A stretch of DNA of 64,000 nt from an uncultured Actinomycetes bacterium (GTDB lineage: Bacteria; Actinomycetota; Thermoleophilia; RBG-16-64-13). The translations under genes and the position numbers were made by a program. Below, in pieces: positions 4,292 through 30,454 of the stretch. The notes under the pieces are model-generated. The model did not search any database and was not told where the DNA came from. It saw only the letters and a list, made by a program, of their open reading frames with translations. The first letter of the stretch is position 1, and each line of letters starts with the position of its first letter. Location: contig CAVPLM010000005.1 of NCBI GenBank assembly GCA_963706025.1, forward strand, positions 32,001-96,000, read 5' to 3'.

Positions 4292-4386
4292 GTGCGGGCT
4301 GAGGGCGACCTGGGCGCGACCTGGCTGCAGCTTGAGTGCGGCCTGGGTGCCGCCTGGGTGGGGAGACCTCGGTGGTGCTTAGAGGT

Positions 4387-4647: not shown

Positions 4648-4704
4648 TCTTCATTCCTCCCGTCTTCCCTTCAAAGTCGCAGGAGTTTAGCATAGCCCTT
4701 GCTC

Positions 4705-6387
4705 ATGGGCAATGACACGAAGAGACATCTTGCGACCGCGGCTGCCTTCCTGGTACTGGCGACCGCCGGTTCCCGGGTGCTGGGTCTGATCCGGGAGATC
4801 GTCATGGTCTCCTATCTAGGCTTGGGCGACGAGATGGGAGCCTTCACCGTCGCGAACAAGGTACCCAGCCTGATCCGCACCCTCCTGGCCGACACCGCTC
4901 TCTCCGCCGCCTTCATCCCCGTCTTCTCCGCTCTGTTGGAGAAGGGGCGCAACCGGGAGGCCTGGCAGGTGGCCTACACCGTGACCGTGCTCGCCACTGC
5001 CGTCCTGGGAGTGATCACCGTCCTGGGGATGGTTTTCGCGCCGCAAGTGGTCAAAGTGGTGGCCCCCGGATTCAGCGACAATCCGGACATCGTCGCCCTC
5101 ACCGTGCACTTGATGCGCCTGATGTTTCCCACAGTAGTGATCCTGGGGATCGCGGGCGTCTTCATGGGCATCCTCAACTCCTACAACCACTTCACCCTGC
5201 CGGCGTTGGCTCCCATCGTCTGGAACCTGGTGATCATCGGAGTGGTGGTCGCGTTCTCGGCCGGATACGGGGTCGAAGCTCTTGCGTGGGGGGTGCTCAT
5301 CGGGACGATCGTGGAGCTGCTGATGCAGATACCGGCGGTGTGGCGGAGGCGGTGGCGGCCGGCCGCCACCGCCGCGCCTGGAGGCACCGGCGTCGGAGCC
5401 GGCGCCGGCGACGCGCCCGCACCCGAGCCCGAGGGCTCCCCCTACCGGCTCGCCCTGCGCAGTCCCGAGGTGCGCCGGGTGGGCATCCTCATCGGTCCGG
5501 TGATCCTCAGCCTCGGCATCATCAACTTCAACGCCTTCATCGGGACCGTCATAGCGACTCTCATCAGCATCCCGTCTCCAGCCATCATCGAGAGGGCGTT
5601 CCGCCTGTTCCAATTGCCTCAAGGGGTTTTCGCGATCGCCATCGGCACGGTGCTGTTCCCTGCATTCTCGCGCCACGCGGCTGCCAAACGAATGGCGGAG
5701 TTTCGCGAAGACCTGTCTACCGGCATACGCCAGATCTTCTTCATGACCCTGCCTTTCGCGGCCTTCTTCTCGGTCCTGGCGGTCCCGACGGTGCGACTTA
5801 TCTACGAGCACGGCAAGGTCACGAGCAGCGATACCGAGTTGGTGGCCTCCGCCTTACTCTTCTTCAGCGTGGGCATGGCCTTCGTCAGCGTTAACACTCT
5901 GCTCAACCGGGCCTTCTACAGCATCCAGAAGCCCTGGGTGCCCCTGATCGTCGGAGTAGCGAACCTGGCGCTGAACGCGGCGCTAATGCTGCTGCTTTAC
6001 AAACCCATGGGCGTCGGCGGGATCACACTGGCCACCTCCCTGGTGAGCCTGTTCAACTTTTTCGGTCTCATGGTGCTGCTTAGCCCACGCATCGGAGGGG
6101 TAGACGCACGCCGGGTGGCCTGGTCGGCTACCCGATCGATCGTGGCCCTCATCCCCCTGGCGGCGGTTGCCTATTGGGTGTGGTGGGGGTTGGACGCCGT
6201 CCTGGGTCGTGACCTCTGGGCGCAGATCCTTTCGGTGGGTCTGGCCTACCTGGCCGGCGCCGCCGCCTATTGTCTGGCCGCCTGGTTGATGCGCATGCCC
6301 GAACTGCGCGACGTGTTGAAAGTGATCCGCCGCCGGCGCGAGCCCCGCTCCACGGACGAGGTGATCGACCTCGAGGGCGGCGGCTAG
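4705..6387 (+). CDS. murJ: Lipid II flippase MurJ (MviN)
   Basis: SRVLGLIRE, ALSAAFIPVF, RLFQLPQGVF, multi-TM profile. Confidence 0.93.
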   Translation: MGNDTKRHLATAAAFLVLATAGSRVLGLIREIVMVSYLGLGDEMGAFTVANKVPSLIRTLLADTALSAAFIPVFSALLEKGRNREAWQVAYTVTVLATAVLGVITVLGMVFAPQVVKVVAPGFSDNPDIVALTVHLMRLMFPTVVILGIAGVFMGILNSYNHFTLPALAPIVWNLVIIGVVVAFSAGYGVEALAWGVLIGTIVELLMQIPAVWRRRWRPAATAAPGGTGVGAGAGDAPAPEPEGSPYRLALRSPEVRRVGILIGPVILSLGIINFNAFIGTVIATLISIPSPAIIERAFRLFQLPQGVFAIAIGTVLFPAFSRHAAAKRMAEFREDLSTGIRQIFFMTLPFAAFFSVLAVPTVRLIYEHGKVTSSDTELVASALLFFSVGMAFVSVNTLLNRAFYSIQKPWVPLIVGVANLALNAALMLLLYKPMGVGGITLATSLVSLFNFFGLMVLLSPRIGGVDARRVAWSATRSIVALIPLAAVAYWVWWGLDAVLGRDLWAQILSVGLAYLAGAAAYCLAAWLMRMPELRDVLKVIRRRREPRSTDEVIDLEGGG

Positions 6388-6393
6388 CGGGCT

Positions 6394-7158
6394 ATGTTCA
6401 TGTTCGTCATGGCAGAGGCACAGCAGGAGAAGCATCCAAAGGAGCCTGATCAAGTTGATTGGGTAGTCGTGGAGTTCCCTCTCAAGGGTGAATGGGCCGC
6501 ACCCAACACCCCTGGCAAGCGAATACCCAGTCACGGGACCGACATGCTCGGCCAGCGCTACGCCTACGACTTCGTGCGCGTGGACCCGGCGTCCAAGGGG
6601 ATGCGTTTCTACAAGCCGAGCACTTCCCACTACCTCTTCGCAGGTGTACGCCTAGAGGATTGCTTCGGATGGGGGGAGCCCATCTATTCTCCGGTGGCAG
6701 GGGTCGTGGTCCGGGCTGAGGACGGGTGGCCCGAGCGGCAGCGGCTGCACCCGGTCAAGGACCTCGCTATCGCCCTCAAGAACGGGCTGACGTTCAACCC
6801 GAGACGGGCAACGGACCTCCGGCCCCTGGCCGGCAACCATATCATCATCGAGACGAACGACGGCTACGCCGTCTTGGCTCATGCCCGGACCGGGTCACTG
6901 AGAGTGTCCACGGGGGAGACGGTCGACCCGGGCGTCCACCTCGCCGATGTCGGCCATTCCGGAAACTCCACAGCCCCGCATCTGCACTTCCACATGATGG
7001 ACCGGCAAGATCTCCTGAAGGCCCAGGGAATTCCCTGCTGCTTCCGGGAGTACGAGGTTCTCGGAGACGAGGGGTGGATCCGGGTGCGAAACGGCATCCC
7101 CAAACACACGGAGAGGATCCGCGGGGTGCTCGGAGAACGGTTTCCGACCCGGCCTTAA
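6394..7158 (+). CDS. M23 family metallopeptidase
   Basis: QRYAYDF, GNHIII, LAH, VGHSGNSTAPHLHFH. Confidence 0.85.
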   Translation: MFMFVMAEAQQEKHPKEPDQVDWVVVEFPLKGEWAAPNTPGKRIPSHGTDMLGQRYAYDFVRVDPASKGMRFYKPSTSHYLFAGVRLEDCFGWGEPIYSPVAGVVVRAEDGWPERQRLHPVKDLAIALKNGLTFNPRRATDLRPLAGNHIIIETNDGYAVLAHARTGSLRVSTGETVDPGVHLADVGHSGNSTAPHLHFHMMDRQDLLKAQGIPCCFREYEVLGDEGWIRVRNGIPKHTERIRGVLGERFPTRP

Positions 7159-7441
7159 CCGGACGGCGGGCGGACCAGGCCGGACCCACTTCGCCTTGCG
7201 GGTCGTCTCGAAGGCATAGGCGTAGCCGACGTAGTCTCTACACGGCCGCAGTGCGTACGTGGACCTCCTGGTGCGTCCGCAAGCAAGATGGCCCCCGGTT
7301 CGGCCGCCGGCGCAGAGGTAGGCAGTGGTCGCGATTTCGAATACGTCCGTGACTTCTCCTGTCGCCTGCATCGCTGATGGCAGGTGGCCCTGGCCTGCGA
7401 GGCAGCCATTCTTGTGCGTCGATCGACCGCATCCGGTGCGG

Positions 7442-7861
7442 CTAGAGTGCGCGCATCCGGTTGTTTTTAGGGTTGTGTTCGACCTCGGCGAGACCGAGCG
7501 CCTCCAGAAGCGGGGGCATGTACATCCCGAACCGGCCGCGCAGACCCTTCTTGAGCCCGTACCAGCCACCGACGGGGTTGTCTGCAGAGCGGCCCCACGC
7601 CTCGACGGTTCCCTCAGCGGCAGGCTTCTGCTCATCAGCGCTCCCGAGAGGTACCCAGTCGCCGCGCTCCTTGAGCATCGCGTGGAGATCCTCGATGGCG
7701 CGCAACCGATAGCTGAGCACCGTCTTGCCGACGACGCACACCAGGGCGGGCGGGTCGGCGGTCTCGTCGCGGTACATCTGATATTCCGACGACCCGCTCG
7801 GTGTCTTGAGAACCCAGGGATCCTCACGACTGCCGGAGCCGCTCAAACTCGTTGCCCCCAT
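7442..7861 (-). CDS. Conserved hypothetical protein (DUF6855-like), cassette gene
   Basis: DPWVLKTP...GTVEAWGRSADNPVGGWYGL...NNRMRA; GGAGG RBS before ATG 7861; GTTAGGC core site at 7940-7934. Confidence 0.7.
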   Translation of the reverse strand: MGATSLSGSGSREDPWVLKTPSGSSEYQMYRDETADPPALVCVVGKTVLSYRLRAIEDLHAMLKERGDWVPLGSADEQKPAAEGTVEAWGRSADNPVGGWYGLKKGLRGRFGMYMPPLLEALGLAEVEHNPKNNRMRAL

Positions 7862-8159
7862 ATCTCGACCTCCACCGGTAGGGCGCATTGACACTCCGCG
7901 AATCTGCCGCCTCTATACCCGCCGGAGCGTCTCGCCTAACGCGAGAATCAGCGACGGTTGTAGGACGGGGCCCGTCCGCTCCGCGGCACGATCACGGCAG
8001 CACTCTCTTCTCTCGGGGCGCGTTCTGCATAGCCACGATCCTGCGCCAAGTGGTGTCGTCGCCGGACAGAACAAGGCCGTAGTGCTCTCGAACATCGACC
8101 GCGACGGCGCGTAGGGCGGCATTCGCGGTGCCGGAACGGCGTGCCCCCGAAGGCTCCAC

Positions 8160-8900
8160 CTACGGACTCGGAGGAAGGTGGAATAGTTGGGTCACTAGCG
8201 GGCCATAGATCAGCCCCCAGAACAAGCGGATTACCAGGGCCAAGACGAAGCCGATAAGCCAGAAGAAGGGTATCGAGTGCCGTTGAGTACGAAGGGGCTC
8301 TTTCCATAGCCGTTCCTCATCGATGAATAGTAAGGGAAGGGCAATGAAGCTGGCATAAGCAATCGTATAGTATGCGACTACCAAGGGAGAAAGCCAGAAC
8401 AGGGGCGAGAGGAGCACGGAGGTCAGCACCCCGGTGAAGATGAGACCTTCGGTAAGGCTCTTCCCGCCGGCAAAGAAGAACACCTCCCGAAACGAGGCCT
8501 GGGTCTTCCTGATGACGAAGTACGAGACGAGGGCAATCGGAATGTAGTCGCCTTGTGCCAGGATGAAGGAAGGCAGGGTCTCAGCGTGTAGACCGCCGAT
8601 ACCTTCCCCAGTGACCGTCAGACTGACTTCGAACAGCATACCGAAGAGCCAAACAAGGAAGACGTACGCAAGCGGCGCGAGGCTCCTCGGGATGGGTATC
8701 TTCTTCCTGAGATCGTATTTCGCGTTCGCCCACATCCCTGCGAGCATCAAACCGTACAGAGCAATCTCCGAAAACCAGTAGGGCGACCTGGGCTCGGGAG
8801 TACCGCCGATGTTCAGAGCCGCGAAGAGTATGCCGGCAGCCATCCAGATCCATACGTTCCATATGCCGCGTCCGTAGAGCTGTGATGATCTCGATCCCAT
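8160..8900 (-). CDS. Polytopic membrane protein of unknown function, cassette gene
   Basis: 246 aa with multiple hydrophobic segments, lower GC than backbone; GTTGGGC core site at 8961-8955. Confidence 0.7.
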   Translation of the reverse strand: MGSRSSQLYGRGIWNVWIWMAAGILFAALNIGGTPEPRSPYWFSEIALYGLMLAGMWANAKYDLRKKIPIPRSLAPLAYVFLVWLFGMLFEVSLTVTGEGIGGLHAETLPSFILAQGDYIPIALVSYFVIRKTQASFREVFFFAGGKSLTEGLIFTGVLTSVLLSPLFWLSPLVVAYYTIAYASFIALPLLFIDEERLWKEPLRTQRHSIPFFWLIGFVLALVIRLFWGLIYGPLVTQLFHLPPSP

Positions 8901-8954
8901 GGGGAGTCTCCCGAGGCGGCCTCAGGTGGCTTCGCCTGTTACGACGCCTGCGCC

Positions 8955-9034
8955 GCCCAACGAATCAGCTCAGCGGCGCGGCGCTGTCTGCCGCGTTCGC
9001 CGGAGCGCTGAGCTGGGCCCCTTCGCGTTGGTAT
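8955..9034 (-). other. Degenerate attC-like site
   Basis: GCCCAAC at 8955 followed by inverted repeat CAGCTCAGCG...CGCTGAGCTG enclosing a GC-rich inner stem; the other core box is imperfect. Confidence 0.45.
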
Positions 9035-9452
9035 CTGGGAGGCGGCGGAGACCACGCATCGAATGCCTTCGCAGCTGCCGAAGAGGCAACAGATCGCGGG
9101 ACAGGTGAAGAGCGCCGTCGTCCAGGTATCGCACCATACAGACCGCCGTGGATGGACAGAGGGAGCGGAACTCGGCTGTACCTCGCACTCCGGTCGGTAC
9201 GCTCTCGCGCAAACAGACCGAGTATCCTCGGTGCCCGAAGAACTCTTTCGCTGTATCGTTTCCGAGCAATTCAACCCCGGCCGTCCCAACAAGCGCGTGC
9301 CCATCCCGGGCCAGCAGAAAATGCTCGATGTGTTCGCCAACGTCTTCATCGGGGAGACCATTTGCCGACAAGAGTTCTCGTACCATCGGGAGTTCATCTC
9401 GGCCGGCCATGGAGAAGGTGATTCCGTCCGATGGTGTTGATGTCTCGATCAT
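8970..9452 (-). pseudogene. ArsN2-like GNAT acetyltransferase with internal deletion
   Basis: LLSANGLP, LVGTAGVE, TAKEFF, TAEFRSLCPSTAVCM; the acetyl-CoA-binding R/QxxGxG segment between GVELLG and TAKEFF is absent. Confidence 0.6.
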
Positions 9453-9507
9453 GTGATCTCCAGCGTCATTCGCGGCCCGGCAGGGACATCGCGCCTGCAG
9501 CGAATCC

Positions 9508-10293
9508 TTATGCTTCGAACGTGATTTCGGCTTCCATGAAAGTGCAGGCCTGACCGTACAATAGAACCCGATCCCCTCTCAATTCGCATTGGATAGAACC
9601 ACCTCGCTTAGAAACCTGCAGAGCACTGAGCATAGATCGATTGAGACGCCCTGCCCAATACGGCGCGAGCTGGCAATGTGCGGCTCCGGTCACTGGGTCT
9701 TCATCAACTCCGAGTTTCGGGGCGAAGAAGCGGCTCACAAAGTCGACACTATTCCCTGGCGCGGTGATGATGACTCCGCGCAAATCAAGTTGCCGAAGCA
9801 AGGACATCTCAGGCGTGATGTTTCGCACGACTTCTTCGCTCGAGAACACGAGCAGATAATCGTCTGCGGCGAGCGTTTCCACGGGCGTAGCCCCAAAGGC
9901 CCTCAGTAGCGCCGGCGGTGGATCACAAGGCACCGGCCTGCGTCCGGGGAAGTCCATCTCAAGGTCCGAGCCGGAGCGTCTGACCGAGAGCACTCCGCTC
10001 CTGGTGAAGAACGAAATGCTGTCGGCTGTGTGGTTCAGGTGAGAGAAGAGGACATGTGCAGAGGCAAGGGTTGCATGCCCACAGAGGTCGACCTCCGAGA
10101 CCGGAGTGAACCACCGTAGTTCATACCCCTCGGCAACAGGCACGAAGAAAGCCGTTTCTGACAGATTGTTCTCTTCGGCAATAGCCTGAAGTAAGGAATC
10201 CGACAGCCACGCGGCCAAGGGAACCACGGCGGCGGGGTTTCCCGCGAAAGCACGCGAGGAGAATGCATCAATCTGATACTGCTTCAGTTTCAT
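9508..10293 (-). CDS. PhzF-family isomerase/epimerase, cassette gene
   Basis: DAFSSRAFAGNPAAV, SETAF, EVDLCGHATLA, EDPVTGAAH; GTTAGAT core site at 10319-10313 just upstream. Confidence 0.92.
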   Translation of the reverse strand: MKLKQYQIDAFSSRAFAGNPAAVVPLAAWLSDSLLQAIAEENNLSETAFFVPVAEGYELRWFTPVSEVDLCGHATLASAHVLFSHLNHTADSISFFTRSGVLSVRRSGSDLEMDFPGRRPVPCDPPPALLRAFGATPVETLAADDYLLVFSSEEVVRNITPEMSLLRQLDLRGVIITAPGNSVDFVSRFFAPKLGVDEDPVTGAAHCQLAPYWAGRLNRSMLSALQVSKRGGSIQCELRGDRVLLYGQACTFMEAEITFEA

Positions 10294-10352
10294 GGAACAC
10301 CGGCGACTTGAGATCTAACGTTGGGAACGCGGGCGGCGAAGCCATCTTCGAA

Positions 10353-10430
10353 GATCACAATCTTGTCGGGATTGACCTTCATCTCACCGAGCGAGACGAC
10401 GTCTTCCGAGAACTCCACTCGACGCGGCAT
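10353..10430 (-). pseudogene. N-terminal fragment of a Phd/YefM-type antitoxin
   Basis: MPRRVEFSEDVVSLGEMKVNPDKIV with GGAGG RBS; truncated. Confidence 0.4.
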
Positions 10431-10525
10431 GGCAGCCTCCAAGCAGCACGTGAGAACTGGTGCCGGTTGTATCACCTGATGACTCTGGGAGCAACACCTC
10501 TGACAATCATTCTGCGGCACACTCA

Positions 10526-10670
10526 CTAGAGAAACCGTTCCACCACGATTTCGTCGATGTCCCGGTCCGCGACCCTGAGGTGGCGCTCGGCGACGCCCTG
10601 GCGGCGATACGCGGCGGCCACGTAGGTGCCGAGGATGCCGACGTGGTCGACGCTCTTGTTCGGCTGATCA
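10526..10670 (-). pseudogene. GNAT acetyltransferase fragment
   Basis: DHVGILGTYVAAAYRRQGVA motif A without the rest of the fold. Confidence 0.45.
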
Positions 10671-11066
10671 TTCCTTGTAGTACTGCTTGAACTCCTCTGC
10701 GGGTTCCCGGTCTGAATAGATGTAGAGCATGACTCCGTTCGGGTCGAGAATGGCGAATCCGCGATCACCCCACGGATGATCTGCAAGCAGCATGACAGGT
10801 GTAAGGCCGCTGGCAGTCATACGGTCGCACTCGGCATCTACGTCTTCCACACAGAAGTTGTACATCAGGCCTGCCGGATTGAACGCCGGAGGGCCTTGCT
10901 CCTGCGGGGCTATAAACTGCAGTTCTGATGTCTCCTTTCCGAATCGGAGGTTCACGTACCACCCGCAATCGAACGTGACCTTGGCTCCGAAATACTTCAC
11001 GTAGAAATCGCACGACTCCTCCACCTTCGCCGTCGTGATGCATGCAGACAGTGTGTGTGCGATCAT
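10668..11066 (-). CDS. VOC/glyoxalase family protein
   Basis: FYVKYFG, DHPWGDRGFAILDPNG. Confidence 0.88.
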   Translation of the reverse strand: MIAHTLSACITTAKVEESCDFYVKYFGAKVTFDCGWYVNLRFGKETSELQFIAPQEQGPPAFNPAGLMYNFCVEDVDAECDRMTASGLTPVMLLADHPWGDRGFAILDPNGVMLYIYSDREPAEEFKQYYKE

Positions 11067-11296
11067 CAGTCCTTCTCCTCTTCCAGTTTGTGCAATTGCC
11101 TGATGTGTGAACCTGCATGTATCTTCTCCAAGTCGTCCAAAAAATGAGTATTGATGTGACGCACTGTGTGCCCTTCGCCTTCAAGGACCTGGTGCTGATC
11201 ATCCAGTTCCGCTCTCGATCCCCTTTGAAGTAGCAGAGTGCATTCCACTTCACGTCGCCCCATCATGCACTCAATTACTTCTGGATTAGGCCCCAT
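11066..11296 (-). CDS. Small hypothetical protein (possibly an internally deleted DinB-like gene)
   Basis: GTTAGGC (11313-11307), then AGGAGA RBS and ATG; H-x-x-x-H-I-R-Q C-terminal motif; stop overlaps the VOC start. Confidence 0.45.
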   Translation of the reverse strand: MGPNPEVIECMMGRREVECTLLLQRGSRAELDDQHQVLEGEGHTVRHINTHFLDDLEKIHAGSHIRQLHKLEEEKD

Positions 11297-11378
11297 TGTC
11301 TCTCCTGCCTAACGTCGAGCTTGATCCTCATTTAATCCGGCATCCACGCCGGACGAAACGTAGTGGTCAACGCTCTTT

Positions 11379-11777
11379 TTATGCATTTCTTGACACCCCG
11401 CAATTCAGACACGTGGGTCTGTGTACACAAATCAGTTCTCCACAAGCTGTACATTGCCAGCGGGCGTTTTCATTCCTGACGAACTGTCTGATTCCCACTT
11501 CCTCTATCTGCATCAGGTTCTCAATCATACTCATGCCGTATTTATCTCGATATCTCTTATCAAGGTTCTTTAATCGTGAACAGGGAAAGGAATCGCAGGA
11601 ATGATCGCAGTATTTCCATTTGCGCTTGTCACAGAATCTCAAAGTACACTTCCTGCTGCATTGAGTGTTGGGGGTGAGGCAGCCATCGCATTTGTTTCTA
11701 TCACGAACAAATCCTATGCAAAGGCGGCAGTTCATTCCGCAAGGAGCTATGTCGGATACCTTGGTGCGTGTTGTCAT
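11379..11777 (-). CDS. DUF3795-like Cys-rich protein, cassette gene
   Basis: IAPCGMNCRLC...CDGC...C...FPC...MIENL...IEEVG; clearly AT-richer than backbone; begins just after the complete attC. Confidence 0.8.
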   Translation of the reverse strand: MTTRTKVSDIAPCGMNCRLCIGFVRDRNKCDGCLTPNTQCSRKCTLRFCDKRKWKYCDHSCDSFPCSRLKNLDKRYRDKYGMSMIENLMQIEEVGIRQFVRNENARWQCTACGELICVHRPTCLNCGVSRNA

Positions 11778-11800
11778 TGAGTGTAGTACCTAAGTTCTGT

Positions 11801-11864
11801 GCCTAACGTTCAAGGTGAGGAGGGCGCCGCTTTCGGCGCGTCCCTCTCGATCGAAATGTTAGAA
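11801..11864 (-). other. Complete attC site (64 bp)
   Basis: Minus strand reads TTCTAAC ATTTC GATCGAGAGGGACGCGCCGAAAGCGGCGCCCTCCTCACCTTGAAC GTTAGGC, with R''/L''/L'/R' boxes and a central hairpin. Confidence 0.85.
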
Positions 11865-11892
11865 GGCAAATTGCCGAGCAGGGACCATTTGC

Positions 11893-12078
11893 CTCGTGAC
11901 CACGCAGACGCTCTACCACCTCGGTCGTGACTGGTATGGGACGCGGATGGACCTCGATTGGCAACCGGCGACCGAGACCGAAGCGACAGACATGTTCGCG
12001 AAGCACGGGCTGGTCGGGGATTTTTGGTCGCTGGTTTAGGAGGTGCCACCGAGCACTTCGAGCGAACGCGCAGACGGT
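11893..12078. repeat. 186-bp inverted repeat, copy A (reverse complement of 14693-14878)
   Basis: Sequence comparison; the same peptide strings appear in opposite-strand ORFs 11927+ / 14086- and 11810- / 14644+. Confidence 0.93.
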
Positions 12079-12158
12079 CGTCCCTCTGGAAGGCATCCTC
12101 GCGCAACTATCCGTGTCCGTCGGTAGTATCATGGGCAGTACTCTAGGAGGTACCATAG

Positions 12159-12330
12159 ATGAGCAGATTCCCCGCTATCGTCCCCATCTCGGACTTGCGT
12201 CAGGATGCGGCGGGCGTCATCAAGCGGGCGGCGCTCTCAGGGGAGCTGGTGTTCATCACCCAGCGGGGGCGACCGGCTGCCGTCATAGTGGACGCCCAGA
12301 CCTATGAGCGCACGCAACGCCAGTACGAGC
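12159..12330 (+). pseudogene. Truncated Phd/YefM antitoxin, paralog of 15937..16212
   Basis: IVPISDLRQDA...VFITQRGR; similarity stops after about 57 aa and no toxin follows. Confidence 0.65.
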
Positions 12331-12684
12331 CGATTCGTGGTATGGCCGGCCAAGGGTGGGCTACAAGCGAACTCCGGGAATGCAGTGTTCGAGTCCGGGC
12401 TTGGCGCCTTCGAGCTGACACGACTCATCGAAGAAGAGCTCGAGCGGGCGTTTGGCGAGAAGATCCCTTCGCTGGTCAAGACGTCGACTGAGATGATCGA
12501 GATCGCGGAGACGGTCAAGAGAACCGCCGGCTCAAGCTACATCTCGCCGCCCACCTGTCCAAGTGATCGGGTCCAATCCGGTCGTGAACCGACTCTAGAG
12601 CTCCACTCGATACACTACTGCGGATACGCTTAGCGTATCCTTTGTTACACTTGAAAGGCTGCGACGCGTCGACGGGAGGTGCGC

Positions 12685-13134
12685 ATGGAACGTGACCCCG
12701 GAACCGAACTGAGTATCACACAGGCGCAGTTCCGCTTCGCCAAGGCGCTCGCCGAGATCCTCGTCTACATCGTCGTGCTCAACCTGTTCGCTGAGTTCGT
12801 GCACGCCGTAGTCATTGAGTCGTTCTCGGTCTCGCTCGTGACGGCGGTACTTCTGTGGCTGATGCTCCGTGCAACCGTGCGCCTTGAGCGCCGAATCGCA
12901 GACTACTTCCGCGAAAGGAAAGGGGTCGTGCCGCGCGTCCTGCGGTACCTGTGCGCCTGGGCGATCCTCTTCGTTAGCAAGTTCGTGATCCTCGAGGTGG
13001 TCGTATTGGTCACCGCCGGACGCGCGGCGCTCGGCCACTTCTTCGAGATCGTCGCCATCGTCGTGGCGTTGCTGGCGGCGGAGGCTGCGCTGGCCTGGGT
13101 CTACAAGAGGCTCGGCAACCGTCCGAGCGGATGA
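12685..13134 (+). CDS. Four-TM membrane protein of unknown function
   Basis: GGAGG RBS; VVLNLFAEF, IESFSVSL, ILFVSKFVILE hydrophobic segments. Confidence 0.75.
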   Translation: MERDPGTELSITQAQFRFAKALAEILVYIVVLNLFAEFVHAVVIESFSVSLVTAVLLWLMLRATVRLERRIADYFRERKGVVPRVLRYLCAWAILFVSKFVILEVVVLVTAGRAALGHFFEIVAIVVALLAAEAALAWVYKRLGNRPSG

Positions 13135-13242
13135 TCCTGAAGTTCTGGGTCCGCTGTCATCGACCGGCAAAGGTCGTTGTGTCAGTGGTCAGTCTGGTCC
13201 GATACGGGTGGTCAGTCCGTGGCCCAGGGCGGCCACTATACC

Positions 13243-13271
13243 TTGCATATTCACCACATCGTGCGTAAAAT
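13243..13271 (+). promoter_or_regulatory. Sigma-70-type promoter, probably leaderless transcript
   Basis: TTGCAT-N17-TAAAAT with ATG 7 nt downstream at 13279. Confidence 0.6.
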
Positions 13272-13278
13272 GCTCGCC

Positions 13279-14538
13279 ATGAAGCAGGACTTCCTTGCCC
13301 GTCATGCGACCGAAACCGTGCTGCAACGTCTTCAAGTCTTCCGCGTCGTGGTCGTCACCGGGGCGCGCCAGGTGGGCAAGTCGACGCTTGCGCGGCTGGT
13401 GGTCGAGCAGCTCGGTGGGTCGTACCTCACACTCGACGACCCGCTGACGCTGTCCCAGGCCGCGGGAGATGCCGATGGTCTGGTGGCTTCGACTACCGGC
13501 CTGACGGTGATCGACGAGGTCCAGCGGGTTCCCGACGTGCTGCGGGCGGTCAAGCTCTCGGTCGACCGCGACCCGACGCCCGGCCGCTTTCTGCTCACAG
13601 GCTCGGCGAACCTGCTGGGCATGCGGGCGGTCACGGAGTCGCTGGCGGGCCGGGCGGTGTACCTCGACCTGCTCCCTCTCTCGTGGTCGGAGTCGGTGGG
13701 CGGGACGCGACCCCACACTATCGACCAGGCGTTCTCCGCCCAATCGGCCGATGAGTTCGCCGCATCGTTGCCGGCCGCCGGTCCCGGCGCGGGTGAGGAC
13801 GCGCGCCGGCGGGCGCTGTGCGGCGGGATGCCGGAGGCCTTTCGCCTTGACGCGGACAGCCGTCGCGCCTGGTACGACAGCTACCGGCGCACCTTCCTCG
13901 AACGCGATCTGCGACAGCTCTCGGACATCAGCCGCGTACCGGAGTTCGGTCGCGTCCTGAGTCTCGCTCTGCTCCGGAGCGGGGGGCTGCTCAACAAGAG
14001 CGATATCGCCGCCGACGCTCAGGTGTCGCACTCCACGGTCGATCGGTACCTCAACCTCCTCCAGGTGGCCTACCAGATCTGGCTGCTACAGCCGTTCTTC
14101 CCCAACGTCACCAAACGACTGGTGAAGGCGCCGAAGCTGTACGCGATCGACAGCGGCGCGGCCGCTTGGGCCGCGAATGCGTTCGACTGGCGCGCAGCCG
14201 TGGCGTCGGCCAAAGATGGCGCGCTTATGGAGACCTTCGCGCTTTCGGACGTCATGGCGTGGGACGGGCTCTCGGGCGCGTCTCGATATCATTTCTGGCG
14301 GACGGGAGCCGGCGCTGAGGTCGACCTGGTGATCGAGCGTGGTGAAGCTGTCGTGGCGATAGAGGTCAAGAGCGCGGTGACTCTTACACGCCACGACGCC
14401 AGTGGTCTGCGTGCGCTCCGCGCCGACCTGGGTGGTCGCTTCCGGCTCGGCATCATCGCGTACCTCGGTCAGGACGTCCGGGTGGTCGATCAGACGATCG
14501 TGGCCGTGCCGCTGGCCTCGCTGCTTGGGGCGACCTGA
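13279..14538 (+). CDS. AAA+ ATPase with DUF4143 domain (AAA_14 family)
   Basis: GARQVGKST, IDEVQR, LTGS, ESLAGR, GGMP, KAPKLYAIDSG, EVDLVIE...IEVK. Confidence 0.9.
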   Translation: MKQDFLARHATETVLQRLQVFRVVVVTGARQVGKSTLARLVVEQLGGSYLTLDDPLTLSQAAGDADGLVASTTGLTVIDEVQRVPDVLRAVKLSVDRDPTPGRFLLTGSANLLGMRAVTESLAGRAVYLDLLPLSWSESVGGTRPHTIDQAFSAQSADEFAASLPAAGPGAGEDARRRALCGGMPEAFRLDADSRRAWYDSYRRTFLERDLRQLSDISRVPEFGRVLSLALLRSGGLLNKSDIAADAQVSHSTVDRYLNLLQVAYQIWLLQPFFPNVTKRLVKAPKLYAIDSGAAAWAANAFDWRAAVASAKDGALMETFALSDVMAWDGLSGASRYHFWRTGAGAEVDLVIERGEAVVAIEVKSAVTLTRHDASGLRALRADLGGRFRLGIIAYLGQDVRVVDQTIVAVPLASLLGAT

Positions 14539-14544
14539 GGGCGA

Positions 14545-14700
14545 GTTCAGGCGAAGAGCTCCGCCGCCGAGCTCGCCGGCGATGTTTCCGTCGACCCAGC
14601 TGCCCGGACCGATGAGGAACACGCTCGCTGGCTCCTCGCCGAGATGCTCGAGTGGCACTGGCGCGAGCAGAAGGTGGTCTTCTGGGAGTACTACCGTCTG
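14545..14700 (+). pseudogene. Internal fragment of a TM0106-family nuclease/helicase
   Basis: DPAARTDEEHARWLLAEMLEWHWREQKVVFWEYYRL. Confidence 0.5.
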
Positions 14701-14878
14701 CGCGTTCGCTCGAAGTGCTCGGTGGCACCTCCTAAACCAGCGACCAAAAATCCCCGACCAGCCCGTGCTTCGCGAACATGTCTGTCGCTTCGGTCTCGGT
14801 CGCCGGTTGCCAATCGAGGTCCATCCGCGTCCCATACCAGTCACGACCGAGGTGGTAGAGCGTCTGCGTGGTCACGAG
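14693..14878. repeat. 186-bp inverted repeat, copy B
   Basis: Reverse complement of 11893-12078; includes the 3' end of the merB-like gene. Confidence 0.93.
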
Positions 14879-15391
14879 CGCACCGAGGCTCAGTCCTTCT
14901 GCATCCAGCCACGAGAACACGTCTGCTTCCGACCGGAACGCCGTCATGTTCGCTCAAGTGAAGACGATGTCGTCCCAGAACTGCTTCGCGGGAACGAGGA
15001 AGTGCACGATGGCGTCGCCTTCGGCCACCCCATCGCGCACCGTAAGCGTGATCGGCTCGCCGGTCGCCGGTGAATGCGTGTGGAGCGTGCCGTCGCCAAG
15101 AATCGCGAGGATCGACAGACCGTCCCACACGCAGTTGGCGAACCACGTTCGCTCGCCGATGGTGACAAGGAAATCCGAGTCGATACCCGAGAACGGATGC
15201 GCCATTCTCACGCGATCGGTGCCAGGAACTAGCACGAGGCGATGCTCGTCTGCCAATGAGTGAAGCGCCGCCGAGGCGTGGGACTCCGCCACACCGAGCA
15301 TGTCGCCGATGGCGGCGGCCGTCGGTGCCTGTCCGGTGTCGCGAAGCGTCTGGATCACGGTCGCCCGCACCTGCCGCTCGAACGAGTCCAT
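14732..15391 (-). CDS. MerB-like organomercurial lyase family protein, probable selenoprotein (TGA at 14956-14954 read as Sec; 219 aa)
   Basis: HTH N-terminus, MAHPFS, FANCVWDG, WDDIVFT*ANMTAFRSE; ORFs 14954..15391 and 14732..14947 are in the same frame; SECIS-like hairpin follows the TGA. Confidence 0.8.
14915..14951 (-). promoter_or_regulatory. Bacterial SECIS-like hairpin
   Basis: GAACAUG/CGUGUUC lower stem, UUCC/GGAA upper stem, GGUC apical loop starting 19 nt after the UGA. Confidence 0.7.
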
Positions 15392-15548
15392 ATGGTCTGC
15401 TCCTCCGAATCGGTCGACGGCAATGGTGCTAACAATACTTCGACAGTCTGCCGGAATCCGCCTTGAAATGACCCAAAAGCGTTTTCGTCGCGACTCCTCA
15501 GCCGCCTTTCCAGGGCTCGGGAGCGTCGAGACGCGCCCGGTGTGTGAT

Positions 15549-15637
15549 GCAGTTGAGCAGCAAGCTGCAGCCCGCTGCGAGTGGATCAGAGCGTAACGCG
15601 GAGGCCGTGGTTTGTCTGCTCGAACTGCTTGTTAGGC
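15549..15637 (-). other. attC site lacking its R' core
   Basis: GCCTAAC overlaps the toxin stop codon; L'' arm GCAGTTCGAGCAG pairs with CTGCTCAACTGC (one extrahelical base); no terminal GTTRRRY. Confidence 0.7.
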
Positions 15638-15940
15638 GTCGCCGGCTTCGGCTGGCTCATCAGGAATCTGCGCCCCATGCCATGCCGCCACGACCCAGAC
15701 TGTGTTGCCCTTGACACGGTAGAAGAAGCGGTACGGGTCGACAATGACTTCGCGGAACTGGAGATCAGGGAACTCGCGAACCACGCGACCCGACTCGGGG
15801 AATTCCGCGAGCCGGGCAAGTACGGTATTCACTCTCTGCTGGAATGCCCGGGCTGCGGACGGTCTGTCTGCGCGGACATAGGCGAGAGCCGCCAGGAACT
15901 GGATCCGGGCCGGCGGCGTGAACTGGACCCTCAGGGTCAC
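15632..15940 (-). CDS. RelE/ParE-family toxin
   Basis: RLAEFPESGRVVRE, FREVIVDPYRFFYRV, VVAAWHG. Confidence 0.88.
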   Translation of the reverse strand: MTLRVQFTPPARIQFLAALAYVRADRPSAARAFQQRVNTVLARLAEFPESGRVVREFPDLQFREVIVDPYRFFYRVKGNTVWVVAAWHGAQIPDEPAEAGDA

Positions 15941-16212
15941 GACTCGCCCAGAAGCGCCTCGGCCTCCGCCATCACGGTCTCCAGGTCGTAGCCCACGCCG
16001 GCCTCGATGTCGGCCTCACCGCGCGCGAGCAGGCGCAGGATCTCGAAGTTGTGCTGGCTGCGCTCGTAGGCGCCCGCGCTGACCAGGACCGCAACAGCAC
16101 GCCCGCGCTGCGTGATGAACACCGGTTCACCGGAAGCAGATGCCCGCTTCAGGATGGCCGAAGCATCCTGACGCAGCTCGCTGATTGGGACGATGTTGGG
16201 GACTGTACTCAT
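15937..16212 (-). CDS. Phd/YefM-family antitoxin
   Basis: IVPISELRQDA, PVFITQRGRAVAVL; 4-nt overlap with toxin. Confidence 0.88.
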   Translation of the reverse strand: MSTVPNIVPISELRQDASAILKRASASGEPVFITQRGRAVAVLVSAGAYERSQHNFEILRLLARGEADIEAGVGYDLETVMAEAEALLGES

Positions 16213-16254
16213 CAATGGTACCTCCTTCACTAGCGTTCATTGTACCACTGATGA

Positions 16255-16590
16255 ACCTACGCAGCGCTGCAGGCTCGTTGAGCATCTCCTGAAACCGCAA
16301 CCGGAGTTCCTCGAACGTTCTCTCGAGCGGATCGGCCGCCGGGACTGCCCGCGGAGCACGAACAACAGCGAAAAGGCCGTACCCGTGGTGCCCTCCGAAG
16401 GTGCCGAGGAGCCGTGCGAATCCACTGGGCATGAAGCTCAAGGTGCTGGAGATGGGGCGAGAGGTGGCGAGCGGCTAGCGTGTCGAGCGTCCGCTTGAAG
16501 GCAGGACATCGGCTTCGTGGATCGCAAGACCTCCGATGACGAAGTGGTCATCGGGATTGCTCGGCTCGAACGCCATGGCCCACGAAGTCG
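16255..16590 (-). pseudogene. Degraded DUF3800-like gene
   Basis: Fragments in different frames: DHFVIGGLAIHE, LELHAQWIR, ERTFEELRLRF; GTTGGGC core upstream at 16653-16647. Confidence 0.4.
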
Positions 16591-16748
16591 ACAACGTTCT
16601 CTCCTTGCGTGTCTGGTTCTCGGTTCAGTCTACCGGCGCGTCGAAGGCCCAACCATAGGTCGTTAGTTGCAGGTGGACGATTGGCACTTCTCAGGGCTGC
16701 GCGCTTCGAATCGAGGCCCGAAAGGTGCGGTTGCCGTCCTTGACACTC

Positions 16749-17820
16749 TCACCCGGCCTGGATCTCCTCCGCCATCTCCAGAAACCGGCAGAACGCATTG
16801 GCCAGCTGCATCTGGCGGGGCGTGCGGCAATCGACCTCGAAGAGACGCGGGCTTGCCACCAGGATGCAGGTCGCCCGCGCCCGCGAGGTGGCCACGTTCA
16901 GGCGGTTGAGGCTGTAGAGGAACTCCATGCCCCGGGGGGCCAGTTCGGGCGAGGAAGTCGCCAGCGAGAAGACGACCACCGGCGCTTCCTGCCCCTGGAA
17001 CCTGTCCACGGTGCCGACACGATGGCCCGGAAGACGAGTGGTCACATCGGCCACCTGGGCGTTGTAGGGGCAGACGATGAGCACCTGCTGGGCGTCCAGC
17101 GCACTCTCCTCGCCCTGGGCGTCGACCCAGAGCACGCCGTCCGTCAGCGATTCCACCGGCCGGCCGACGGCCTCCACCTCTTCGGGGGAGGAGTTCTGGT
17201 TGCCCTCGTGCTCCACAGGCAGGAACCAGAGCCCCGCGCCTGCAAGGGGCGTCGGCCCCCGCAGAGCCTGGTTCTCGAAACCCGGTCTCGACTCCAGCCG
17301 GCCCTCGCAGAAGAGCTCGGAGGTGAAGAGACAGATATCGGGATGCAGACGCCAGGTCTCGTCGAGAAAGAGTCCGCGATCGTCGGCGATGGTCTGACGG
17401 CCCTGAAGCAGGTGCTCGAGGGCCGACACTTCCGTGCCCTCGGGATGGCTGCCTTGTTGTGGTTGCTCCAGCTGCTGAGGGTCGCCGAGGAGGACGATGC
17501 TCTGTGCCGCCTGAGCGACCGCAATGACGTTCGCGAGCGACATCTGCCCGGCTTCGTCCACGAAGAGCACGTCCACGGCATCGCGGAAGTCAGGACGCGC
17601 CCACACCCAGGCAGTGCCGGCCGCCACCTGAGCCTGGCCAACGGCGACGCACTCGAGAAGGACGGCGTTGTCGGTCAGCTCGAGTATCTCCCGGTAGGTG
17701 TCCTCCGGATCGCCTTTGACCTTCTGGGCGCAGCACAGTTCGACTCCTTCGTCCGCCAGCCGGGCGATAGCGTTGATGTCATCGACGGTGCCGAACTTGC
17801 CTTCCACCCAATGAAGATCG
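16749..17820 (-). pseudogene. C-terminal SF1 (Upf1/DNA2-like) helicase part of a TM0106-family protein
   Basis: VDEAGQ, LGDPQQL, TWRLHP, PYNAQ, GTVDRFQGQE, RLNVATSRA; Walker A and N-terminal nuclease absent. Confidence 0.75.
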
Positions 17821-17913
17821 GCCTCGTCGCGAAGCTCAGAATCCTGGGGTGGGTAGCTGTAGCGGCAGAGCGGCGAGGACGAGCCTGGCGCGCATGCTCG
17901 GACAACGCGCGAA

Positions 17914-17937
17914 GTCGGCTGCACGCGCTTGTTCGAA
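17914..17937 (-). other. attC left half-site
   Basis: TTCGAAC AAGCG CGTGCAGCCGAC 12 nt after the toxin stop; right arm missing. Confidence 0.55.
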
Positions 17938-17949
17938 CTACACTCGCGA

Positions 17950-18246
17950 TTATCGGCGGCCACGCCAGTAGTAGGGTCGCTTCCGCTGATGCGCCACGGC
18001 CAGAATCCTAAGGGAGTTTTCACGAGTCTCGTAGATGAGGCTGTACGGGAACTTGGCGAGCACGAGCTTGCGAACGTCGTTAGTGACTTGCAGGGCAGCT
18101 CCGGGGTACTGCCGGATGCGCGCGAATCCGGTATCAACCTCATCTGTGAAGATCAATCCAAGACCAGGGCTCTCGCGCTCGTAGTAGTCGACGGCGTCAT
18201 TGAACTCACGACGAGCGTCAGGGTGAACCTGCAGCACCCGCGTCAC
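17950..18246 (-). CDS. ParE/RelE-family toxin
   Basis: HPDARREF..AVDYYE..PGLG, KFPYSLIY, ILAVAHQRKRPYYW. Confidence 0.9.
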   Translation of the reverse strand: MTRVLQVHPDARREFNDAVDYYERESPGLGLIFTDEVDTGFARIRQYPGAALQVTNDVRKLVLAKFPYSLIYETRENSLRILAVAHQRKRPYYWRGRR

Positions 18247-18467
18247 TTGAGGCGAGCCCTAGCCTCAGCGATGACCTGATCCGCTGGAATGGTCTCAACG
18301 AGGCCGGCATCGATCTCCGCGCTGCGGCGTAGCACCTCTTCGACCCACAACTGCTCGACCTCAGCCTCCGAGAGGGACTCAAGGCTGCTCAGGAGTTCGT
18401 GAGCCATGGAAGCACGATCCCTGGCACTGAGCATGAGGGCTTCGCGCATCAGTTCGTCAACGGTCAT
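18243..18467 (-). CDS. Putative addiction-module antidote (TIGR02574-like)
   Basis: [21 protein letters not shown]...W.EE..RR..EI..G; overlaps toxin. Confidence 0.85.
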
Positions 18468-18547
18468 ATCACACCTCGCAAACGCCGGAATGCTCTCGCC
18501 GATATTGTACCTCGCGCATCTGACGCCGAACCCCTACCGAGTGTTGG

Positions 18548-18566
18548 TGCGAACAACCATTATCCG
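18548..18566 (-). other. Candidate attI simple site
   Basis: Minus strand CGGATAA-TGGTT-GTTCGCA (7-5-7 layout); the GTTCG core matches TTCGAAC at the end of the first cassette; flanked by direct repeats GCCGAACCCC(T)ACCGA at 18525 and 18571. Confidence 0.45.
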
Positions 18567-18716
18567 GTCTGCCGAACCCCACCGATGCAGCGCCTGGGTG
18601 TCTTCGTGGCGCCGGCTCCAGCTTCCCCCGGAAAGGGGCGGAAAGCGCTGGGAACCGCACGACGCTATGTCCCGCCCCGACCGTCGTTCGACAATAAACA
18701 GACTGTATATGCAGCC

Positions 18717-18812
18717 CTACAGAGCGTCAAGCGGGCTAGGGACAACCTGTCCGCCCCGGTTGAGCACATGGGTGTAGATCATGGTGGTACGCACATCGTT
18801 GTGGCCCAGCAG
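18717..18812 (-). pseudogene. intI: Integron integrase C-terminal remnant (31 aa)
   Basis: [31 protein letters not shown], the characteristic IntI box II and tail with catalytic His and Tyr. Confidence 0.88.
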
Positions 18813-18866
18813 TCGCCCCGTCGCCAGGCGGCGCGATCCGCCCCGTGCGCTAGAATACGTCCCCTC

Positions 18867-20687
18867 ATGGGACGCTTCGACCACATCCGCAACTTCTCCA
18901 TCATCGCCCACATCGACCATGGGAAATCCACCCTGGCCGACCGCATCCTGCAGATCACCAACACGGTGGCCGAGCGGGAGATGCGGGAGCAGGTGCTCGA
19001 CCGCATGGACCTGGAGCGTGAGCGGGGCATCACCATCAAGGCCCAAGCCGTCCGCATCTACTACCACGCCGAGGACGGCCGGGAGTATCAGTTCAACCTC
19101 ATCGACACCCCGGGCCACGTGGACTTCAGCTACGAGGTGTCCCGGAGCCTGGCCGCCTGCGAGGGAGCCATCCTGGTGGTAGACGCCACCCAAGGCGTGG
19201 AGGCGCAAACCCTGGCCAATGCTCTCCTTGCCCTCGAGAACGACCTGGAGATAGTCCCGGTGCTCAACAAGATCGACCTGCCCGGCGCCGAGCCGGAGAA
19301 GCGGGCGGAGGAGATCGCCAGCGTCATCGGCTGTCCGCGTTCCGACATCCTCCATATCTCGGCCAAGACCGGTGAAGGCGTGCCGGCGGTGCTCGAGGCG
19401 TTGGTGCATCGGATCCCGCCGCCTCAGGGCGACGCCGATGGGCCCCCGCGGGCGCTCATCTTCGATTCGGTCTACGACCAGTATCGGGGCGTCGTGGCCT
19501 TCGTGCGCGTGCGCGACGGGAGCTTCCGCAAGGACGATCCGTTGCTGGCTATGGTCACGCGGCGCCGCAGTGACATAGAAGAGGTGGGCATCTTCAGCCC
19601 CGATATGCTCAAGACCGACATTCTGCACGCCGGCGAGGTGGGCTACATCATCCCCGGCATCAAAGAAGTAGCCGATCTGCGGGTGGGCGACACCCTCACC
19701 CATGCCCAGCGGGCCGCCGCCGAGCCCCTTCCCGGCTACCGCGAAGTCACTCCCATGGTGTTCTGCGGCCTATTCCCCATCGACGGCGAGGATTACCCCG
19801 ATCTGCGCGACGCTCTGGAGAAGCTCAAGCTCAACGATGCCTCCCTCTTCTACGAGCCGGAGACGTCCAAGGCGCTGGGCTTCGGTTTCCGCTGCGGGTT
19901 CCTGGGCCTGCTGCACATGGAGATCGTCCGGGAGCGCCTGACGCGGGAGTTCGGTCTCGACCTGCTCGCCACCACCCCCAACGTGCGCTACGAGATCGAG
20001 CTGCTCACGGGAGAGGTGCTTTCCATAAGCAATCCCGTGGATTTCCCCGAATCCGGTGACATCAAGGAGGTGCGCGAGCCCTACATCGCCGCCACCATCT
20101 TGGTGCCCGCGGAATTCGTGGGTCCGGTGATGGAGCTGTGCAACGACAAGCGCGGGCGCTTCGCCCACATGGAGTACCTGACCTCCGATCGGGTACGTCT
20201 CGATTACGATCTGCCCCTGGCGGAGATCGTGCTCGACTTCTTCGACCTGCTCAAGACCCGCAGCCGCGGCTACGCCAGTCTCGATTACGAGCTCAAGGAC
20301 TTCGAGCCGGGCGACCTGGTGCGTCTCGACATCCGCATTGCCGGCGAGATCGTCGACGCCCTCAGCCTTATCGTGCACGCCGACCGCGCTTACGCCATCG
20401 GGCGGGGGCTGGCCGAGCGGCTACGCAAGAAGATCCCCCGGCAGATGTTCGAGGTGGCCATACAGGCGGCGGTGGGAAGTCGGATCATCGCCCGGGAGAG
20501 CGTGGCCCCTTTGCGCAAGGACGTGCTGGCCAAGTGCTACGGGGGCGACATCACCCGCAAGCGCAAGCTGCTGGAGAAGCAGAAAGCCGGCAAGAAGCGC
20601 ATGAAGATGGTGGGGACGGTGGAGATCCCTCAGGAGGCTTTCCTGGCGGTCCTCGATCTGGGCGAAGGGAAAGAGGGGAAGAGATGA
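18867..20687 (+). CDS. lepA: Translation elongation factor 4
   Basis: [54 protein letters not shown]. Confidence 0.98.
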
Positions 20688-29204: not shown

Positions 29205-29568
29205 GGGGGCGACATGGTTTCGACGGGGCTCATGTCTGAGTTTGGGTAGCGAGCCGAGATCCCGGCCGTTCTCGTTAAACAGGCTGGAAAACAACAATTG
29301 CCAAACCTGAATTGGCTCTGGCCGCTTAGTCTGACTAAGACTTAAGCGCCTGTCGCGCCTCCCGTGCCTGCCGGGGAGGGCCGCGGCATAAACCAGGCGG
29401 GCTTACTCTCGGCGAGCACCGCCGGCGTCGGGGGGACATTCAGGTGGTTGGCCGGACGCACCCAGCTCCTACGGGGGCGCGAGGCGAGAAACGTAGTAGG
29501 GGCTACGCTCGTAGAAACCTGGGCCAGACGGGTTTCGGACGGGGGTTCGATTCCCCCCGCCTCCACCA
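29205..29568 (+). ncRNA. ssrA: tmRNA; tag peptide AKPELALAA (29300-29329)
   Basis: GGGGGCGAC...TTCGAC 5' end, GGGTTCGATTCCC...CTCCACCA 3' end, tag ending LALAA, near smpB. Confidence 0.96.
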
Positions 29569-30403: not shown

Positions 30404-30454
30404 CGCGATGAGCAGTCTCGCCGGATCTGTGGTGGAAGCAGCAGACGAAGCGAG

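Follow-up and report, generated by a model that had tools for sequence, protein, structure and literature searches.

Integrase remnant, attC sites and cassettes between murJ and lepA

The DNA studied was a stretch of 64,000 nucleotides (nt) from an uncultured Actinomycetes bacterium (GCA_963706025.1, contig CAVPLM010000005.1, positions 32,001-96,000), hereafter the window. Between the core genes murJ (distal flank) and lepA (proximal flank) it carried a decayed integron, the integrase gene of which, intI, was left as a 3' remnant on the minus strand (Table 1). The encoded peptide of 31 amino acids (18720-18812; stop codon 18717-18719) matched positions 285-315 of the 315 positions of TIGR02249 (E 3.4e-12, 46 bits), and the XerC and XerD models covered just its first 16-18 residues (E about 1e-3, 18-21 bits). 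Judged by these profile matches, the peptide is the C-terminus of an integron integrase and not of XerC/XerD, in agreement with a preliminary description of this DNA, which had reported an IntI tail on the minus strand and the loss of most of intI. The tail lay 55 nt from the lepA start, on the opposite strand. Full-length IntI queries found no second IntI piece in the window, the other matches having E 0.19 or worse. Because lepA is 55 nt away and no other IntI match exists in the window, the rest of intI is absent rather than frameshifted; the last 31 of about 320 codons remain, and an intact IntI with the integron-specific insertion domain was not present. A split integrase, with the N-terminal half of intI at the far end of the island, was ruled out on the same ground. 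About 35 nt next to lepA resembled the empty-site spacer of relatives.

The attC sites were searched on the bottom strand with a covariance model built from 17 training sites of class 1 and class 2 integrons, Kovacikia and Gemmatirosa, none of them from the window; the model was our own build and not that of IntegronFinder, and its E-values are rough. A rule-based scan (one site inside the interval, six weak ones outside) was used solely for choosing the training sites. Over the 64 kb, the model gave 9 matches at E<=10. The top three were all inside the murJ-lepA interval with their bottom strand on the plus strand, as expected for minus-strand cassettes, and the best match outside reached 9.2 bits. 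The site ranked first was the one described before as complete, at 11801-11864 (27.6 bits), and the sites described as broken at 8955-9034 (21.5 bits) and 15549-15637 (15.9 bits, third best) were also recovered by this independent model. A further broken site, at 17914-17937, was recognizable by inspection as a left half-site, with neither a model match nor a significant fold (z -0.12); folding z-scores carry no information for half-sites. Its full-length counterpart was visible in the relative L017. Two attC sites on the same strand stood 2.8 kb apart (11801-11864 and 8955-9018), with a third at E 0.049, and no functional intI was nearby in the window, which corresponds to a cluster of attC sites lacking an integrase (CALIN; at least two sites within 4 kb). 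By inspection, many breakpoints fell inside attC (17905, 15549, 14690, 10640 and 9490), with left halves fused to gene fragments; attC hairpins may be deletion-prone.

The five GTTRRRY cores listed in the preliminary description (7940, 8961, 10319, 11313 and 16653) were all found at their positions; the claim that each preceded a short gene failed at 16653, where no recognized gene followed. Generic GTTRRRY was at chance level in the interval (9 minus-strand copies, where shuffles averaged 6.75 and 70 of 300 reached that count), and bare cores were therefore dropped as integron evidence. The GTTAGRY subset, a pattern picked post hoc, occurred four times inside the interval and not at all on both strands of the outside 52 kb (6 of 300 shuffles).

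Read on the minus strand from lepA, the array comprised the intI tail, a leader, attI-like site A, an antitoxin-ParE cassette, a half attC, a helicase fragment, a Phd-ParE cassette, an attC without R' box, attI-like site B, a MerB-like gene, an inverted 3-kb block and the complete attC. Beyond it followed DUF3795, glyoxalase, PhzF, ArsN2-like, membrane-protein and DUF6855 genes, mostly parted by half or damaged attC sites. At its 5' end the first cassette reads GTTCGCA, identical in 6 of 7 positions to the complement of the R'' of this cassette. With tail, attC sites and core genes all located, the earlier reading of an eroding array of integron origin between murJ and lepA was borne out, as was the co-orientation of integrase and cassettes, the intI tail and attC lying on the same strand in the window and in the relative L008.

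Integron heads and the predicted cassette promoter in related genomes

The named close homologs of the window HrcA were from Thermoleophilia (78-82% identity). A scan of GTDB genomes gave 52 HrcA loci; 20 of the 21 closest were labelled Actinomycetota in their records (4 Thermoleophilia, 8 Actinomycetes, 8 phylum only) and one was unlabelled, and after these 21 the nearest named loci were from Solirubrobacterales. With core genes nearest to genomes of that phylum, the host is placed in Actinomycetota, probably in the class Thermoleophilia rather than among actinomycetes in the narrow sense. The host described before as actinomycete-like thus stands at the phylum level, and its narrow meaning does not, as the HrcA neighbours point to Thermoleophilia.

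The relatives counted were 17 loci showing the lepA 5' end, after dropping L003, L004, L007 and L021 (locus without lepA) and the distant L022-L052, in which no IntI match was found. In L012, L013, L015 and L017, murJ was out of view and the interval was seen in part. The murJ-lepA gap was empty (67-86 nt) in 4 of the 17 relatives and variably filled in 13; where murJ was also in view (13 relatives), 4 were empty and 9 were filled with differing genes. The interval is an insertion hotspot, with variable content between syntenic core genes. It starts at the murJ stop (6387), because the M23 peptidase gene behind murJ had no tblastn match in loci L001-L021 and so was unmatched in every fetched locus. 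At the other end, a TAGAAT box stood 7 nt ahead of the lepA ATG and was kept in relatives; it is inferred to be a leaderless lepA promoter.

Four relatives had IntI tails right behind this predicted promoter, their strand agreeing with that of the window: a decayed one of about 80 codons in L005, one of about 40 in L008, and tails of about 10-15 in L011 and L017. The comparison of relatives proposed in the preliminary description thus revealed a variable interval with tails in four genomes, and the whole intI was found at murJ-lepA in none of the 17. Together with the window, integron heads occurred at this locus in 5 of 18 genomes of the clade. In L017, another tail was found 4.2 kb deeper in the interval, again with a leader and an attI-like site, and the block behind this second head was 77% identical to the first cassette of the window over 699 nt. 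In L008, an attC followed just past the head; this site (6594-6529, minus strand) almost abutted the attI-like site, as an empty first cassette. When each of the six tails (window, L005, L008, L011 and two of L017) was left out in turn, a profile of the others recovered it from 1.02 Mb with E 1e-10 to 0.011. L015 gave one weak tblastn match (E 0.004), was missed by the DNA profile and was not counted as a further tail.

Site A was located by motif comparison at 18572-18545, behind the intI tail where an attI-like site had been proposed, and the second site (15451-15424) had been missed. The motif, GCAGAC-N12-GTT, also precedes the first cassette of the complete integron of Gemmatirosa and occurs in L017; it gave 8 matches across the 2.05 Mb searched, 4 of them in integron heads.

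A -35-like box and a -10-like box exactly 17 nt apart were found in 6 of 6 IntI tails. The final Leu-Asp codons of the tails read TTGACG, TGGACA or TCGACG, and TACAGT or a near variant followed 17 nt on. The two boxes had a mean pairwise identity of 79% and 80% among the six tails, compared with 45% for the initial 13 bases of the spacer and 33% further downstream. A regular expression for this promoter was derived from the six tails, which match it by construction, and had three extra matches in 1.99 Mb. L018 showed the geometry without IntI codons and was left out of the tail count. The boxes across the intI stop are predicted to form a cassette promoter; the surviving tail would then not be random debris, as it would hold this promoter. 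The -10-like box overlapped an imperfect palindrome, ATACAG-T-CTG (18707-18695, minus strand), whose reverse complement resembled the left part of the attI-like motif; it is possibly a binding site of the integrase or of a repressor.

Full-length IntI of the same subfamily exist (a clade of 30 rows, Shimodaira-Hasegawa-like approximate likelihood ratio support 95), such as P0256 with 474 bits on TIGR02249. Read-through products of the longer intI copies P0259, P0235 and P0127 matched the post-stop leader of the window, and in two cases the match reached the attI-like site; for this reason the leader is assigned to the intI subfamily, transcribed toward attI. By score the link of the 31 residues to the subfamily was weak (P0256 ranked 27 of 157), and the leader match carries it. 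Other IntI tails of the subfamily (P0135, P0138 and P0241) were fused to further peptides, which resemble antisense translations of tRNA or transfer-messenger RNA (tmRNA) 3' ends, hinting at heads at other insertion sites.

At least two tail sequence types were distinguished (window-L005 50/68, L011-L017a 47/67, L005-L011 41/68). The tails were scattered over the host tree, and the sisters L005 and L011 carried different types. The core genes disagreed as well. In L018, murJ grouped with L001 but lepA and hrcA with L006 (p-AU 4e-78), and hrcA rejected two groupings proposed by murJ or the lepA 5' part (p-AU 7e-4 and 3e-4), the one at 3e-4 being that of L011 with the window by lepA-5'. Three of the four approximately unbiased (AU) tests rejected congruence; these tests covered the flanking core genes only, and their groups were picked once the identities were known. 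Since the core-gene trees conflict and both comEC and pilT are encoded in the window, exchange by homologous recombination at the flanks would be the simplest account.

Cassette genes and neighbouring features

Several array genes had a GC content of 46-57%, against about 65% for murJ and lepA. The deacetylase gene, a remnant in the window, was longer or whole in the murJ-lepA interval of L001, L002, L014 and L016. In the MerB-like gene, the in-frame TGA aligned with a MerB Cys in PDB chains, and homology went on past it. Among 150 MerB-like homologs, 71 stopped at the TGA position, and 64 of the 76 reading through had Cys there. A small hairpin 19 nt past the TGA appeared in the centroid fold only (z 0.16). 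The MerB-like gene is likely not broken, being a predicted selenoprotein gene with the TGA as selenocysteine. A listing of prokaryotic selenoproteins includes a MerB-like family, possibly the same one (PMC9312934). The 3' end of this gene was present as an inverted duplication (11893-12081 and 14690-14878, 189 nt at 99.5%) bounding the inverted block, one end of which fell in an apparent decayed attC. The block would be either a recent rearrangement or an assembly fold-back.

Outside the array, holA and hemW (3280-4302 and 21013-22173) matched in split frames, and uncorrected assembly indels are therefore suggested. A tmRNA with the tag AKPELALAA was found at 29205-29568 and a c-di-GMP-II riboswitch at 30450-30555, close to the beginning of a gene pair whose last member encodes a class F sortase, both on the plus strand. 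A weak tRNA match of 31 bits (61934-62005, plus strand), not called by ARAGORN, is possibly a degenerate tRNA. No Rfam family was found within the murJ-lepA interval.

Table 1. Coordinates of the features in the murJ-lepA region of the window
Feature	Position	Strand	Details
murJ	4699..6387	+	Distal core flank; TIGR01695
M23 peptidase gene	6394..7158	+	Part of the variable interval
Deacetylase gene remnant, 54 nt	7183..7236	-	87-89% identity to L001, L002 and L016; PF00850
DUF6855 gene	7442..7940	-	Behind right half attC (core 7940); PF21619, E 7.7e-72
Hydrophobic hypothetical cassette gene, 246 amino acids	8160..8900	-	No family; atlas look-alikes mostly Chloroflexota (weak lead)
attC, atypical (right half intact, left half irregular)	8955..9033	-	Model match 8955-9018, 21.5 bits, E 0.0012; hairpin z -2.4
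ArsN2-like acetyltransferase gene	8970..9452	-	NF040501, E 9.5e-21, two stretches, below family cut-off
PhzF-family cassette	9508..10319	-	Begins at core 10319, ends in damaged left half attC
attC left half	~10640-10666	-	Behind glyoxalase cassette
Two-gene cassette (hypothetical of 76 amino acids, glyoxalase)	10668..11296	-	
attC, full-length but damaged (R'' AAC to AAA)	11307..11385	-	Inspection; hairpin z -1.6; no model match
DUF3795-like cassette gene	11379..11777	-	46% GC
attC, sole complete one	11801..11864	-	27.6 bits, E 2.5e-5; bottom-strand hairpin z -2.0
Inverted block (plus-strand genes Phd, DUF1697 fragment, hypothetical, AAA_14-DUF4143 ATPase)	11893..14878	.	Bounded by copies of the MerB-like 3' end
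AAA_14-DUF4143 ATPase	13177-14538	+	Candidate defence family PDC-S01 (PADLOC), E 1.6e-122
MerB-like gene, in-frame TGA at codon 146	14732..15391	-	Directly behind attI-like site B
attI-like site B (second head; tail and -35 box absent)	15424..15451	-	Crossover G at 15433
attC without R' box	15542..15637	-	15.9 bits, E 0.049
Phd antitoxin and ParE toxin cassette	15632..16230	-	PF02604, PF05016
Superfamily 1 helicase gene, 3' fragment	16749..17900 (5' boundary approximate)	-	AAA_11/AAA_12; PADLOC MkoA, C-terminal part only
attC left half fused to helicase fragment	17905..17945	-	Inspection; no model match
First cassette (addiction-module antitoxin, ParE toxin)	17950..18467	-	PF09720, PF05016
attI-like site A, GCAGAC-N12-GTT	18545..18572	-	Crossover G at 18554; leader of about 150 nt after intI tail
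Predicted cassette promoter, TTGACG-17 nt-TACAGT	18702..18730	-	Straddles intI stop
intI 3' remnant, last 31 codons and stop	18717..18812	-	TIGR02249
lepA	18867..20687	+	Proximal core flank; TIGR01393, E 1.5e-290

Origin of the array and comparison with known systems

The explanation we favour, with somewhat more than even confidence, is that the interval is an insertion hotspot at which co-oriented integron heads were trimmed down to their promoter and exchanged between relatives, with attC mostly broken. The murJ-lepA gap of this Thermoleophilia-like lineage would collect heads of co-oriented integrons, and intI of the subfamily would be transcribed toward attI, with a predicted -35 box in its last codons and a -10 box just after them. 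To begin with, as the sequences display, the predicted lepA promoter is immediately followed by a head, composed of an intI tail, a leader of about 150 nt, an attI-like site and cassettes. Deletions would then trim intI from its 5' side and survive until the promoter is reached, leaving tails of about 10 to 80 codons and captured genes that would stay transcribed without a local recombinase. Subsequently, relatives would trade pieces, probably taken up as DNA, through homologous recombination within lepA or murJ, and a newer head could become stacked in front of an older one. Further deletions left mostly half attC sites, visible along the window array, and most of its cassettes are therefore no longer excisable. 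The cassette array would end up frozen and in part domesticated, its promoter being a borrowed one.

Several observations weigh against this explanation. A blind sigma70-like scan of 7100-18900 (11.8 kb) listed the predicted promoter as one of 3 sites, against a chance mean of 2.0; therefore conservation across the tails, and not the match to consensus, is the evidence for the promoter. The -35 box sits in codons that are conserved in IntI anyway, and C replaces the first T of the -10 box in 2 of 6 tails (L005 and L008), which is expected to weaken it. The -10 box was absent from the Gemmatirosa integron, though the attI motif is common to both, and head B had neither tail nor -35 box. Toxin-antitoxin cassettes usually have their own promoter, so the first cassette of the window may not need the predicted one. 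P0259 keeps 265 IntI residues, showing that trimming does not always go to the end. On the relatives, the attC model found one site, in L008 (19.1 bits), and none in L017. As for exchange, lepA-5' alone did not reject L005 with L011 (p-AU 0.155), and chimeric contigs of metagenome-assembled genomes could mimic recombination.

A single ancestral integron behind lepA that decayed vertically to a CALIN, with the tails as neutral remains of deletions whose limit was the lepA promoter, is regarded as unlikely. It would suit the shared position and strand of the tails in all tail-bearing relatives, the 68-75% likeness of the window, L005 and L008 tails, and the confinement of the four empty loci to one side of a branch, the pattern expected from a single loss; Xanthomonas, too, has a locus-bound integron whose intI is often truncated, according to the accessible text of a recent report (10.1101/2025.06.18.660453). 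However, the two tail types cross the tree, the two closest relatives of the window have no tail, and there are two heads in the L017 array and two attI-like sites in the window. Furthermore, none of the six tails extends beyond the final quarter of the gene, which would have a probability of about 3e-4 with uniform, independent endpoints (the lengths are approximate and the tails not fully independent). The one integron inserted between murJ and lepA, as first described, thus keeps its position and loses its single landing, the interval being a lineage-wide hotspot with stacked heads and two tail types.

The heads might also be live satellites, with an intact IntI elsewhere in the chromosome loading the promoter-attI sites in trans. 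The existence of full-length IntI of the same subfamily (the clade of 30 rows, with P0256) and the intact look of the attI-like sites in the window agree with this, and P0256 tentatively suggests an intact intI elsewhere in a relative, L012. But the first cassette behind head A is shared by the window and L017, the two copies being only 77% identical, and this head therefore appears to have been idle, with nothing new loaded, for a long time; moreover, one complete attC is left in the window. Active loading is thus considered quite unlikely. It is highly improbable that the intI truncation and the patchwork are artefacts of long-read metagenome assembly: the split frames of holA and hemW point to indel errors, and the 189-nt inverted copy is of the kind that fold-back errors give, but the same type of junction occurred at different points in four other assemblies, the stretch of about 35 nt like the empty-site spacer was kept beside lepA, and such errors could account for the inverted block or single damaged bases and not for the head.

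Beyond the favoured explanation of trimmed and exchanged heads, a bolder possibility, regarded as rather unlikely, is put forward: the lineage may have a split integron system of its own, in which an intact integrase of a distinct co-oriented subfamily is encoded elsewhere in the chromosome and integrase-less promoter-attI heads at murJ-lepA and other hotspots are loaded in trans and pass from species to species by transformation. If true, integrons would no longer count as nearly absent from Actinomycetota, and a host would have a way to retain the promoter and the landing site of an integron and still shed the local recombinase.

Compared with known systems, the locus works like an inverted-integrase integron, intI and attC sharing one strand and the attI-like site lying past the intI stop in the window and in L008; in its present state it counts as a CALIN with a relic of intI and not as a complete integron. 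CALINs beside an intI pseudogene, with an attC cluster and an intI relic only, are similar, and relics were near 15 of 279 CALINs, according to the accessible part of Cury et al. 2016 (PMC4889954). Unlike those in that part, the relic here recurs at one locus across a lineage and always ends at the predicted promoter, and the heads come with attI-like sites and can be stacked. Transcription of intI toward attI, in the direction of the cassettes, is known from the inverted-integrase integrons of Treponema (PMC3607928, in part), which have a whole intI and intact arrays, unlike the window. From what is accessible of PMC4889954, the inverted-integrase group is paraphyletic. The co-oriented layout had been called Treponema-type, which is correct as to its occurrence in Treponema and not as to confinement there, because Gemmatirosa kalamazoonensis has a complete co-oriented integron with 15 attC. 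This integron (L054, 8001-16969) was found with at least 15 similar attC on an unannotated 1.1-Mb plasmid. It shares the co-oriented intI and the GCAGAC-N12/13-GTT site with the window, but has a whole intI and an intact array, and the integrase subfamily of the window did not group with Gemmatirosa IntI (tree without Treponema IntI).

The chromosomal integron of Xanthomonas has a divergent layout, unlike the window, and the class 1 cassette promoter Pc lies on the strand opposite intI1. The Xanthomonas integron at ilvD resembles the present locus in being locus-bound, with intI mostly deleted or truncated and arrays frozen; an intI allele was replaced by recombination in X. arboricola, while the host is gammaproteobacterial and neither promoter trimming nor stacked heads are described in the accessible text (10.1101/2025.06.18.660453). 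Likewise, the class 1 Pc is embedded in the integrase coding sequence; it lies in the 5' end of intI1, whereas the predicted promoter of the window lies at the 3' end on the sense strand and spans the stop codon (PMC8876359, in part). The gene-transfer hotspots free of mobile genetic elements of Oliveira et al. 2017 are also variable intervals between core genes with homologous recombination at the flanks; as far as the accessible text goes, they were defined within species, whereas here different species are compared and integron heads make up the cargo (PMC5635113).

In Actinobacteria, IntegronFinder 2.0 reported no complete integron, one In0 and a few CALINs, a gap called intriguing (PMC9024848), and a permafrost study notes that integrons are virtually missing from Actinomycetota (PMC13323075); a review, however, names Actinomycetota among the phyla with integrons (PMC8618304). 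No report was found of integrons in Thermoleophilia or Gaiellales, nor of a promoter across the intI stop, in a literature search mostly outside subscription journals; survey supplements could list such genomes. The heads in 5 of 18 clade genomes and the matching full-length subfamily suggest that the Actinomycetota gap comes partly from the sampling of cultured genomes. New in comparison with the systems above are the recurrence at one hotspot across a lineage, the stacked heads, and a predicted promoter that would explain the tails. The locus also gives a testable account of how CALINs originate and stay expressed, in which intI trimming would halt at a promoter in the last codons.

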